Source: Eledone cirrhosa
Taxonomy: Eukaryota
Assembly (NCBI GenBank): GCA_964016885.1
Contig: OZ024742.1
Location: forward strand, 229,958,001-230,022,000
Length of the DNA stretch: 64,000 nt
Direction: 5' to 3'
The notes under the pieces were generated by a model. That model was not told the DNA's origin. It ran no database searches and saw only the letters and a program-made list of their open reading frames with translations. The position numbers and the translations under genes are program-made. Within the stretch, counting starts at the first letter, position 1; each line of letters starts with the position of its first letter. This document shows positions 45,386 to 56,984 of the stretch, piece by piece.

Positions 45386-49055
<3,670 letters not shown>

Positions 49056-51152: not shown

Positions 51153-54100
51153 TCAGGCCAAGTCGAAGACTCCACCCTCAGAGTCTCGTGTGGTTGCCAG
51201 GTTGGATTCTCTGTTTAATTTTGACATGTGTAGGAGCGAGTTTGAGTCAGTTTGTGCTCGTTGTGTATATCCTGGGAGATGGGGTTCATCTCTAATGGTG
51301 CTTAAGTATCTATCCAGCTGCAATTTGAATGATTTCACACTGCATCCTGATAGATTTCTGACATGTACCGGAATGGAGTTGAATAGTTGTGCCCCTCGAA
51401 CCAACAGACTTGACTCTCGCAGGGTTTTTGCTGCCTGGCCAGCCTTTTTGTTGATTGGTGGTAGCTGGCAGCGTCTTCCGTGGCGCAGTGAGTGGTAGGT
51501 TTTGATACCAAAGTTTGGCACCTTTTGCTCTATCATTTTCCAAATGTATATAATTCGGTAACGCTCAAATCTTCTTTCTATTGAGTACATCTTCAAGGTT
51601 TTGAGTCTTTGCCAATAGTCCAGGTCCCTCGTTTCTGAGAAGTATGAGGTAAAATTACTTTGGAGCGATTCCATCTTAGATAGTTGGCCCTTTGTTGTTG
51701 GTGACCACAACTGAGAACAGTAGTCAATCCTCGGAAGTATCATACTGTTTCAGAGGGTTTTCATTGTTGAGGTATCTCTTGATTTGAAGGTGCGCAAGAT
51801 CCACCCGCTGAACTTTCTTGCAGTAAGACAGACTGAGTCAAGGTGTTCTTTGAATTTTAGGCTGGTTCCCATGTGGATGCCTAAATCTTTCACACACTGT
51901 TTTTCCATTATTTGTTGTCCTGATGGGTTTCTGTAGTTTGTTGTATTTTTCAGATCTTGATCTGTTCCGTAGCAAATTAGGTCAAACTTCTTATCATTGA
52001 ACAACATGTTGTTTGTTTCCTGCCATTTGTATATGGTGGTTAGGTCCTTTTGTAAGGCCTCTGTTTCCACTTCGTCTTTGATTTGTCTCATGACCCTGGT
52101 GTCATCAGCAAAGGATGAGACGTTGCTGGTTGTATCTTCATCTATGTCAGAGATGAGGATGAGAAACAGGATCGGGCCCAGTACTGTACCCTGAGGAACA
52201 CTGCTGGTCACAGGTGATGGTGTTGAATGGGTTCCATTCACAGTGACTGTTTGAGTTCTATTTGTAAGGAACTCATGTATCCATGTACCAACTTTTCCTC
52301 CTACTCCTAGCTTTCGAAGTTTGTGTCCCAGGATGCCATGATCTACCTTGTCAAATGCCTTGGCAAAGTCGAGGTAAATAACATCGGTGTTGTATCCATT
52401 CTCTAGATTTTCTAGGATTTGGTCATGGTGTGCCAGTAGTTGGGAAAGACATGATCTACCTAACCTGAATCCATGCTGATTGCAATTCATCAGATTGTTG
52501 GATTCCAGGAACTCAACCAGTTTTCCACGAACTATTCTTTCGAAGACCTTGATAATGTGTGATGTCAGTGAGATTGGTCGGTAGTTCTTTGGTTTTGATT
52601 TGCTGTCCCCTTTATGTATTGGAGTTATGTGTGCTTCTTTATATGTATTTGGTATTTTGCCATTCTCCATAGATTCCTTCCGTATCATGTAAAGGGGTTT
52701 CAACAATTGTACCTTGCAGTTTTTAAGTATCATGGCATGGAAACCATCAGGCCCCGCAGCCGAGTGCATGGAGAGCTTGTCTATGGCTCTTTCTATGTCT
52801 TCTGGGTTGAAATCAATGCCGGATAGGGTAGGTTTAGTATGGTCGATATCCTTGAAGAATTCTCCTGGGTCATGGATCTTCATGGTTTTAGATGGCTCAC
52901 TGAAGACACTTTCATACTGTTGACCCAACATTTCTGCTATTTCAATAGGGTTATTCACTACATCCCCATTTTGTCTCTGGAGAGGTCCTATTGTTGACTT
53001 GGTATTCGAGTATTTCTTTGCAAAACTGTAGAAACATTTTGGATTTTTCTTGATGTTTTCTATGGCTCTCTTTTCTGCATTGTTACGTTCTTCATCATAG
53101 TGTTGTTTTAGATTGTCTTCTAATCTGTATATTTGGTCAAGGACTTTCTGTAGTTCATGTTTTGATGTCAGCTTAGATGTTTTGTTTCTTAGTCTTGACC
53201 TTTTGCGCATCAGGATCTTTCGCTCGCGTGGTACAGGTTTTTTTGTGGATTTAGTTTTCTTAAGAGGAATATTTTTTGCACATATTTCTTCGATCTTGTT
53301 TAAGAATTTCTTGTGTTTATCTGGCCCAGTAAGGTAGAGATCCCAGTCAATGATTTGTAACTGGTTGTTAATAGTTACCCAATTTGCCTGGTGATAATCA
53401 TACCTGCATAGCTTTGGCATGTCCTTTTGTTTAAGAGTTGTGGCATTGGGCTCATTACCAATGTGTAAATGCATTTCAATAATATTGTGGTCTGAAAGGA
53501 TTATTGGGGTTGAGTGAAGGTCAAATAGCGTGTCCTCATTGTTGGTGAAAACCAAGTCGATCGTATTATTATTTCTAGTTGCTTCTGTCATCATTTGTTT
53601 GAGGTATAATTTCTCTGTGACTTCCAACAGTTTGGCTGCCTGTATTTGTTCAGCTTTTGTCCCCAGTTTTAGTATGTGTCCATGTGGCCAGATGATGTTA
53701 GGGAAGTTGAAGTCACCAAGGAGGATAATGTCTGGCATTGGACTCGCCATGTTTCCCAGAATTTGTTGGAGCTTTGTCAGTGGCTCAGTGAAGGATAATG
53801 TTGGGCTGTTTGGCGGTCTGTACATTATTGTTACAACTGTATTAAGTTGGATGATTTTTATGCACAGCAGGTTGCAGTAGGCATTTGATTCATTGACAAG
53901 TTCTATGCATGCATAGGTATCATGGATATACATGATAACGCCCCCATGGGATCTGCCTTGTCTATCACATCTGAAGATGTTGAATCCATTGATTGAGATT
54001 TCGCTGTTGCGGATGTTTTCGTTGAGATGACATTCAGTAATTCCAATTATTTTGGAGTTGTTTTCTGTTGCTAATTCTTCCAAGGAAGGGACTTTACACT

Positions 54101-54359
54101 GTTTTGTTTTCGGATAAAGACCCTGGATATTTGCTGTTATTATGCTTGTTGTACCGGATACATCTGCCCTATTGTTGGCAAGACTGTTGTAGTTGCTGGG
54201 ACTGTGCTGACTGGATATTCGGTCTGCTGGGCTGTCTGTATTTGTTGTATGTGCCCTGTAAGTCCAGGTGTCAGCCTTTGTATCAATGTTGCCTGGTTTT
54301 GCTGAGTCATCTGTATGGAGTACAGCTGTTGTTGTAGTTTGTAGATTATGCCTAAAAAA
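51153..54359 (-). pseudogene. CR1-group ORF2 (APE endonuclease plus RT) with one in-frame TGA at 51750-51752
   Basis: TANIQGL (upstream of the annotated TTG start), GITECHL, YRPP, LGDFN, SDHN, NYRPISLTS, YLDFAKAFD, VPQGTVLGP, FADDT and PRIDYCSQLWSP. ORFs 51750-54083 and 51153-51743 are in the same frame. Confidence 0.92.
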
Positions 54360-55498
54360 CTGCTTTCATTCATTACTGTATCGAATTTCTGCGAGTTTGG
54401 GTTTGTTACAGCTGATGTGTGCAATTGAGTAGCATGATTTTCATTCACTGTTGAGCCATGACCTGGTTTCTGCATTTTTGGGAAATGGTTTTCATACCTT
54501 GCTGAGCTTGGTCCTGGTGGTGTGGGTTCAGTAGTTTTTATGCGAATTGTACCCTTCCGGTGCATAAATTTGCAATTCTCGTCAAAACATTCTTTTTTTC
54601 TCAGCGAATTGCGGCACATCTTTGGGTGAAGGAGTTCACATTCTCGGCCATTTTGGCATCCTTTTTTTCGATCAGTACCGAAGTTGATATATGGTTTGCA
54701 TGGTTTGGGGTGACTGTACGTGCACCCTTTACCTGAAAGACTATGTTTGCACTTGTTGCTCCTGTAATGGATACATACTGGCCTCTCTTCATTTGAGCGT
54801 TTGCTCTGAATCTGTTTCTTTTCGTGGGAAGTTTGGTCTTTTTCTACAGGATCTCCTGTTTCTTGTTCTGTAGGTGTTTGCATGTCATTGTCTTCATTCT
54901 TGTCATTTACAAGAGGCACTTGGATGGCCTGTGTGTGGCAGGATTTATTTGCCATGTCAGTTTCGCCAATCAATTTCTGTTTAGAACGGCCTGTCTGTGG
55001 TAGGGTCCTAGGTTCATTCGTTATTGTGGCCCTTGGTGAACAATAACCGCATAGCCAGTGTAGGCCTAGAATATCTGGAATGGTGTGGTTATTTATCTTT
55101 TTTAAGTAGCACGCTTCGTGTATTCCTTGTCCACAGATGAAGCATGCCAAAGCTGGTTTTTGGCCAAATGTAATGCAGTACTGTTTGTCACACATTTTGC
55201 AAGTCTCCGGGAGGAAGTTTTCAATCCTTGTTATAATCCAGTTGGTGAGGTTTGATTTTGTGAGCTCAACTTGAACACCATCATTCAAGAAAGCTGCTGC
55301 TTTCTTTAACATCGTAAACTTACAGTTTGTGAAAATATTTTTGTATATTGCTCCACTTTCGTGTTTGATATCATATTTCGACAAGACACTTTTTATATCT
55401 TGATTTTGTGTTGATGAGATGATTTTCAATATGATGTCTGTGGCCAGGCAAGTGTTGCTCTCTGAGCTGGCAGTCCGTGGATTTCCGTTACCCGTCAT
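54140..55498 (-). CDS. LINE ORF1 protein: PHD-like finger plus three CCCH zinc fingers and Gln-rich C-terminus
   Basis: Intact 452 aa. PHD-like CKMC...CFICGQGIHEAC...WLCGYC; CCCH fingers CIHY..C..C..H, CKPY..C..C..H and CRNS..C..C..H. Confidence 0.85.
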   Translation of the reverse strand: MTGNGNPRTASSESNTCLATDIILKIISSTQNQDIKSVLSKYDIKHESGAIYKNIFTNCKFTMLKKAAAFLNDGVQVELTKSNLTNWIITRIENFLPETCKMCDKQYCITFGQKPALACFICGQGIHEACYLKKINNHTIPDILGLHWLCGYCSPRATITNEPRTLPQTGRSKQKLIGETDMANKSCHTQAIQVPLVNDKNEDNDMQTPTEQETGDPVEKDQTSHEKKQIQSKRSNEERPVCIHYRSNKCKHSLSGKGCTYSHPKPCKPYINFGTDRKKGCQNGRECELLHPKMCRNSLRKKECFDENCKFMHRKGTIRIKTTEPTPPGPSSARYENHFPKMQKPGHGSTVNENHATQLHTSAVTNPNSQKFDTVMNESSFLGIIYKLQQQLYSIQMTQQNQATLIQRLTPGLTGHIQQIQTAQQTEYPVSTVPATTTVLPTIGQMYPVQQA

Positions 55499-56873
55499 CG
55501 TTTATGTGGGCGGTGGATTGTGAATAGCTTGAGATTTAGAATTGTTTGACTTGAATGGAGAGGGGGAAAGGAGCAGTGGTTGATTTTGTACACTGGCTAA
55601 GATAGTAGTAGTAGTAGCAATGGTACGTGAGTTGTTAATGGAGCTATGGTGGTGGGGATATGGAGGAAGTAAGAGTGGTCGGGATGGGTCACTGGCGAGG
55701 TAGAATGGAATGTTTGGCTTTGGCCACTTGGAGTAGTAGCAGGAGGAGGAGGAGGAGGGAGAGAAGATGAAGAAGGGGAAGTAGCAGTAGAAGATGGAAA
55801 CAATGATGATGACGATAATGACGACGCTGATGGTGATGGCAGTGGGTCTATTAGTTCTTTTAGCTGCTGATGTGAATGTTGTAGTTGTATTCACTTCAAT
55901 ATATGACCAGTTGCGATATTTAAAGATGTGTTTTTTTTTGTTACTGTTGCTGTTGTTGTGAACTACTTATTGTTTTTCAGTGTCTTCGATTCGTTGTTGA
56001 TCACTTAACCAAGTTGTTTGTGCAATAAAATATATAGATAATAACATTAAATGGGCTGTAGTGAGTAAAAATATTTCGGGCTAGTTTATCCACGTGGTTA
56101 CAGGTTTCTCACAGTGAGATACGAAGCAGAGTTATTAAAGAGATGGCCAACTCTTTTAGCAATGAAATTGAAGTTTGAGGCTTGTATGTTATCGGTTTGA
56201 AAGAGAATGAACCATGAGTTAATGAAAGTATCCACTTCAATATACGACCAGTTGCGATATTTAAAGATGTGTTTTTTGTTGTTGTTTTTTGTTACTGTTG
56301 TTGTGAACTACTTATTGTTTTTCAGTGTCTTCGATTCGTTGTTGATCACTTAACCAAGTTGTTTGTGCAACAAGAAATATAGATAATAACAGTAAATATA
56401 GGGAATAAATATAGGTAATGGCAAATAAGGATAGAAATATTCAAAATATTAACTTCTGTGGTGTATATTGAACAGTAGGAGACATTAATACTGGTATATG
56501 TTATAATTCTGAGATAATGTAAACTATTGTGTGTTTGTTAATAGGAATATTGTGTACTTACGAATAATTATTATTATCGTTATAGTATTATATCTTTCAT
56601 AATACGTGTTCACTATACAAAAACGTAGCTTTCACTGGAATTAAGGCTTTGTCGTTTTTGAGAAGGAAGAATTTTCAGTTGAGTTTTCAGTTGAAAATTG
56701 TAAAGTTGGGTTCATATGTATTCTGTTCCAACAGCTACTTACTGGTCAGAGCGAGCTGAAACATATCTTGTTAGGTGGGAAGTCTACAGCTATACCTATA
56801 TATATATATATATTTTTAATATAGAAGAGCTTCTACAGGATTAGAACTGTTTCATTCATGAGAAATCATCAGG

Positions 56874-56922
56874 GTTTCCTGATGATTTCCCACGAATGAA
56901 ACAGTTCTAGTCCTGTAGAAGC
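56874..56922 (+). ncRNA. Type-I hammerhead ribozyme, right arm of palindrome 56813-56938
   Basis: GTTTC-CTGATGA-T-TTC-CCAC-GAA-T-GAA-ACAG-TTCTAGTC-CTGT-A-GAAGC. Confidence 0.72.
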
Positions 56923-56984
56923 TCTTCTATATTAAAAACTTTTATACTCTGCTATGTGGCTACCTCCGATTCAACCCGGAATAA

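Follow-up and report, generated by a model that had tools for sequence, protein, structure and literature searches.

Translation of ORF2 from bicistronic LINE RNA is described as unclear in a passage of PMC3708506. The LINEs studied so far use reinitiation, and frameshifting has been put forward for some non-LTR elements: ORF2 of the APE-type elements TRE5-A and TRE3-A of Dictyostelium is stated to need a −1 frameshift (a passage of PMC5911963), the gag of Drosophila HeT-A is said to need a frameshift (excerpts of PMC5009743 and PMC5443660) and +1 shifts are suggested for LINEs of Paramecium (an excerpt of PMC5405496). The literature searched, outside which lie most subscription papers and Repbase Reports, yielded no account of a frameshift in CR1 LINEs, and the word "frameshift" is absent from the available main text of PMC10294476, PMC4120745 and PMC3708506 on CR1 and LINEs. 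A PHD finger in CR1 ORF1 is known (PMC4120745, in excerpt), and "CCCH" is absent from the available main text of the same paper. Here we describe an octopus CR1 LINE that, together with its clade, appears to express ORF2 by programmed −1 frameshifting at U_UUU_UUA to give a PHD-CCCH-linker-APE-RT fusion, a reading drawn from sequence comparison to which we assign a probability of roughly 0.8. Heptamer conservation, an open −1 frame and a mostly missing ORF2 AUG support the fusion originally predicted for this LINE; the shift itself we infer. The mechanism is of a known kind and is new for CR1 LINEs as host clade. The original prediction had called it LTR- or retrovirus-like and unlike studied LINEs; the contrast with all LINEs is too strong given the −1 shift stated for TRE5-A and TRE3-A in the passage of PMC5911963.

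The CR1 element in the window and its candidate slip site

The window, that is the whole 64,000-nucleotide stretch of octopus DNA analyzed, contains a near full-length CR1 LINE copy (family A) at about 56,812-51,119 on the minus strand, on which its parts and the open stretch upstream of ORF1 given below are likewise read. Other copies match up to 56763-56812 at the 5′ side, the 3′ end is a (TGAAA)3 tail read in the sequence, and 40 matches share 96–100% identity with it. The CR1 label given earlier is right: by eye, in alignment rows, the window RT matches O.sinensis_37_LINE and O.sinensis_201_LINE, both classed Jockey/CR1 in the tree table of PMC10294476 (a part of that paper), and the element has APE and RT in ORF2, 5′-truncated copies and a short-repeat 3′ tail. 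Membership of Proto2 was considered and rejected, the four Proto2 reference RTs differing plainly from the window RT by eye. ORF1 (452 aa, 55498-54140), 91–94% identical to Octopus vulgaris proteins, comprises a PHD finger (55040..55201; PF00628, residues 100-153, E 0.021, below cut-off), three CCCH zinc fingers (54548..54775), an amphipathic helix starting at Phe-Leu and a Q/P-rich tail. The PHD and zf-C3H1 domain matches are weak and below cut-off; the Cys/His columns of the CCCH array are invariant in homologs, as are the PHD ligands in 161 ORF1 homologs. ORF2 encodes an APE endonuclease (53487..54140; PF03372, residues 76-293, E 9e-8) and a reverse transcriptase (51876..52613; PF00078, E 2e-30), and is interrupted by a premature stop (51750-51752) private to the window copy, where contigs of four out of four sequencing runs show another base. 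The 5′ UTR carries a direct repeat of ~170 bp (55887-56052 and 56228-56397, 92% alike), which other long copies also have. Upstream of ORF1 and in its frame lies a low-complexity open stretch of 154 codons (55502-55966), separated from ORF1 by a TAA common to other copies, and an inverted repeat of ~126 bp (92% alike, 56813-56938) adjoins the 5′ end of the LINE on its outer side. Elsewhere in the window, an open frame of 162 aa (47717-48205, minus strand) carries a QMDIANYYSSI motif and resembles an RT fragment of another, perhaps Penelope-like, retroelement.

The heptamer T_TTT_TTA (54359-54353) stands in ORF1 phase, AGC AGT TTT TTA GGC, and with the conserved G that follows occupies 54352..54359. 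A TGA (54366..54368) closes the −1 frame upstream, so that the ORF2 frame is open from 54365, two codons before the heptamer (TGA AAG CAG TTT TTT AGG). From heptamer to ORF1 stop the two frames overlap by 220 nt, and the dual-coding part (54140..54352) encodes the ORF1 helix and tail in frame 0 and an S/T/P/N-rich linker in frame −1; NIQGL starts at 54131. ORF2 has its first in-frame ATG only at codon 145 (53933-53931), inside the endonuclease and past conserved motifs of that domain. The original prediction had described the heptamer and its phase, the opening of the −1 frame, the overlap of about 220 nt and the lack of an AUG ahead of the endonuclease as they are found here. The window copy thus has an X_XXY_YYZ heptamer in zero-frame phase, as an excerpt of PMC3542737 defines a slip site, and a downstream ORF2 in the −1 frame that is open from the site and has no start of its own. 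One detail needs correction: the trans-frame peptide was predicted as ..RHNLQ.., which is not the family's, since base 54340 is private to the window copy (29 of 29 other copies differ) and family A reads ..RHNLP...

Conservation of the site in copies, relatives and proteins

All 30 family A copies fetched keep TTTTTTAG with the heptamer intact. A −1 frame running open into the endonuclease was recognized in 26 of them, by pattern in 23 and by eye in three whose motif is substituted, and none of these has an AUG. Because the copies are 97–99% identical, their conservation is weak evidence. The same copies bear on polymerase slippage on T6, by which a U added to some transcripts would fuse the frames at the RNA level: the homopolymer run invites it, as does the hypervariable site of family B (see below), yet reverse transcription should return T7 transcripts to the genome, and 30 of 30 copies have six T. 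The phase is moreover conserved, and relatives with T_TTA_AAC or G_GAT_TTT have no long run, so that polymerase slippage seems scarcely credible.

Family B, a second octopus family found via its CCCH finger, has the same layout and site as the window element, an endonuclease 38% identical to that of the window and a very different ORF1. In this high-copy octopus CR1 (at least 320 copies; rows L061-L080 and L117-L145) TTTTTTAG is kept in only 227 of 320 copies and altered in 93, which exceeds the prediction from 1–4% divergence. The expectation that copies would be free of synonymous change in the heptamer is therefore borne out in family A and in the 16 of 22 metagenome loci described below, and not in family B. 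The older family B branch mostly reads ..TCAG (nine of 10 rows, variants having been enriched in the sample). Most family B copies have A_AAU_UUU one codon upstream of the site, which could have served the older lineage; among the 29 variant copies, only eight retain this overlapping site, as counted by eye. Inserted copies escape selection and A/T runs mutate readily, and the need for the slip site may conceivably be relaxed in this family. As a separate observation, where the A_AAU_UUU and U_UUU_UUA sites overlap, the same positions of the A/T run change recurrently. A search for further octopus families returned only 5′-truncated copies and family B variants.

More distant relatives were taken from 26 metagenome loci picked by patterns in the zinc-finger region that exclude the site, of which 22 span it (L086, L102, L103 and L106 fall short and were left out). 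T_TTT_TTA followed by G is present in 16 of these (14 after removal of the near-duplicates L090 and L100), another known slippery heptamer lies at the same place in four (G_GAT_TTT in L094 and L101, G_GTT_TTT in L096, T_TTA_AAC in L105), and in two (L092, L104) the site is broken. The substituted heptamers match ones in excerpts of PMC5009743 and PMC3542737 and in the abstract of PMC4524249, and in L105 the swap alters the protein, ORF1 there reading S-L-N-E. L105 (1930-2493) is an ORF1-only decayed copy, deleted or non-autonomous, with T_TTA_AAC and a strong hairpin and no endonuclease downstream. The conservation among related elements that the original prediction asked for is found: the heptamer is kept at the nucleotide level across families with endonucleases ~30–68% identical. 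None of 53 other Phe-Leu pairs of the same elements uses T_TTT_TTA, and the site therefore exceeds chance, with counts that are not independent because the elements are related. On these counts and on the swaps to other slip sites, the site is conserved beyond the need of the protein. The viral contigs searched held no related locus.

The −1 frame had been expected to be free of stops through the overlap, and of the 17 elements that could be tested (L083 and L099, at contig ends, and L105, without APE, were left out) 16 have it uninterrupted between heptamer and endonuclease, over 63–214 codons; the exception is L098, in which the heptamer is present and the frame closed. Resampling ORF1 synonymously gives a chance of 0–0.30 per element for such an open frame, upstream stretches of equal length contain 2–18 stops, and in several elements the frame opens 0–2 codons before the heptamer. 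The linker it encodes is unconserved and S/T/P/N-rich. The predicted lack of an ORF2 AUG holds between heptamer and NIQG for 12 of 16 elements, the window included, and fails for four. In L088 and L093 an AUG lies close to where the endonuclease starts, and L087 and L095 have TAATG/TGATG stop-start overlaps.

The latter two overlaps favor termination-reinitiation near the ORF1 stop, either at an AUG as in SART1 or AUG-independently as in L1 (precedents in excerpts of PMC5009743 and PMC3708506), with Phe-Leu preserved because the protein needs it, for example as a helix cap. That the ORF1 stop lies −1 to 65 nt from the NIQG motif in 16 of 16 elements agrees with reinitiation, and is also where a stop would be expected once the hydrophobic first APE strand begins. 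S/D-x-x-E at the site resembles the helix capping box motif; Gln, favored at that helix position, is however seen once against 25 times for Gly. Reinitiation leaves unexplained the codon-level fixation of T_TTT_TTA far upstream, its swaps to other slip sites and the 63–214 codons over which the −1 frame is open upstream of the stop, and we consider it improbable.

The same bases could also be read as a 3′ splice acceptor, TTTTTTAG followed by G, such that splicing would link ORF1 (or the 5′ UTR) to ORF2 in the RNA. The site fits Y6-AG/G (the slash marking the joint), the public gene model P0002 joins ORF1 to ORF2 exactly here, and ..TTTCAG occurs in family B variants and in L096 and L101. Spliced RNA would keep the 3′ tail that LINE proteins recognize (an excerpt of PMC4176376) and should therefore leave copies, yet spliced copies number 0 of 38 in family A, and all 29 family B copies with non-T at −3 (among 320) are colinear upstream, a test that joints keeping T at −3 escape. 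Contigs of four runs, their RNA status guessed, bridge the site with no joint listed. In 16 of 16 metagenome loci with T_TTT_TTA the run is strictly T and never C, only 3–9 of the 15 bases upstream are pyrimidines, and L105 and L094 have no good acceptor. Splicing is thus a very unlikely source of the junction. Longer proteins with ORF1 and ORF2 fused in frame numbered 0 among 1990 candidates, which is weak evidence.

At the protein level, a profile search with ORF1 gave 3,659 clusters at 50% identity, 150 among the matches listed, and 161 proteins (median pairwise identity 30%) were aligned, with P0002 and P0003 left out of the protein counts. Phe-Leu occupies the site in 150 of 161 homologs and is as fixed as the zinc ligands, the ten columns before it being unconserved. 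The 11 without it comprise seven truncated proteins, one that continues in the −1 frame as FFR, one of QDFQ type and two, P0067 and P0154, that have no explanation. The residue before Phe is never M, W, K, E or Q, the five residues whose codons cannot end in U (0 of 150 versus a background of 28%), and the residue after Leu is GNN-coded (G, D, E, A or V) in 136 of 150 versus a background of 19%, in a protein set slightly biased because the search profile contained the motif. S, T, D or N precedes Phe in 98 of 150. Where the GNN residue is missing, Asp precedes Phe in 11 of 14 proteins versus 29 of 136 of the others, which suggests a subclade that may use N_GAU_UUU. Separately, a 2A-like (G/D)(V/I)ExNPGP motif lies near the N-terminus of 35 of 161 ORF1 homologs (e.g., P0011, P0013, P0015 and P0016); the window ORF1 has none. 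An excerpt of PMC3708506 places 2A motifs in LINEs mainly at the ORF2 N-terminus.

Downstream RNA structure and the proposed route to ORF2

Averaged over elements, stretches of 50 nt fold most stably immediately 3′ of the site (−11.6 versus about −5.5 kcal/mol; mean z −1.15), and in 14 of 20 elements z is below −1 relative to synonymous recoding, with a stem that often starts 7–9 nt downstream; canonical stimulators lie 5–9 nt from the slip site. RNAalifold on nine aligned hairpins found compensatory changes in none of four pairs. On the folding predictions, in one subclade a hairpin that starts ~7–9 nt past the site is a likely stimulator of the shift. In the window's family, in family B and in L089, L091, L097 and L098, folding pointed to no stimulator; the first two and L091 form one supported branch in a tree from which L135, L136 and L143 were left out. 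The hairpin of the window copy (54308..54328), 24 nt downstream, is as weak as had been predicted (z +0.6, and +0.2 in a second test) and is not credible as stimulator, and longer folds (100–220 nt), a stem scan and a crude scan for pseudoknots gave none for its family. In the subclade of the window element, the shift likely has low efficiency and depends on the heptamer with the G after it, or else on a signal not seen here. The conserved G fits the effect in HIV, where efficiency is influenced by the GGG that follows the UUA codon (PMC5009743, in excerpt).

In the mechanism we propose, tRNA-Phe and tRNA-Leu would slip back one base in tandem at U_UUU_UUA. The majority of ribosomes would translate ORF1 to its end, helix and Q/P tail included, and a minority would yield the PHD-CCCH-linker-APE-RT fusion, so that the slip may set a high ratio of ORF1 to RT. 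The shift would fall at the first residue of the ORF1 C-terminal helix, a linker of 60–220 flexible residues replacing helix and Q/P tail. The whole CR1 branch (the 3,659 ORF1 clusters) has probably evolved the retroviral Gag-Pol strategy independently, some members also using 2A-like StopGo. A slip site throughout the clade would be a third route to ORF2, would tether the RT to PHD and CCCH fingers, and would rank among the largest collections of −1 frameshift sites that animal genomes contain; in the members among the 35 of 161 ORF1s with a 2A-like motif, two recoding signals of viral type would act on one RNA. The clade also offers numerous natural U_UUU_UUA sites, some with a hairpin and others lacking one, for the study of stimulator-free frameshifting, and P0002 illustrates how annotation pipelines misread such junctions as introns.

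Comparison with known systems

SART1, with its UAAUG coupling, and L1, with AUG-independent ORF2 initiation, likewise have a bicistronic LINE RNA with ORF2 near the ORF1 stop, but make a separate ORF2 protein and have no long dual-coding overlap or slip site. HeT-A differs from the octopus CR1 in that its shift lies inside gag and it has no RT. TRE5-A and TRE3-A are amoebozoan, tRNA-gene-targeting elements whose slip site is not given in the passage of PMC5911963. Some single-ORF CR1s carry a PHD before APE (an excerpt of PMC4120745), an arrangement that the predicted octopus fusion resembles. Set against HIV-1, the octopus element is a non-LTR element with APE and without protease or integrase, no stimulator is predicted in its subclade and its shift is putative. 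HIV-1 gag-pol nonetheless has the same heptamer U_UUU_UUA, in the same phase and with the same following G, as well as a structural ORF upstream and an RT downstream in the −1 frame across an overlap of ~200 nt, and a hairpin ~8 nt downstream is, by prediction, shared by many CR1 relatives.
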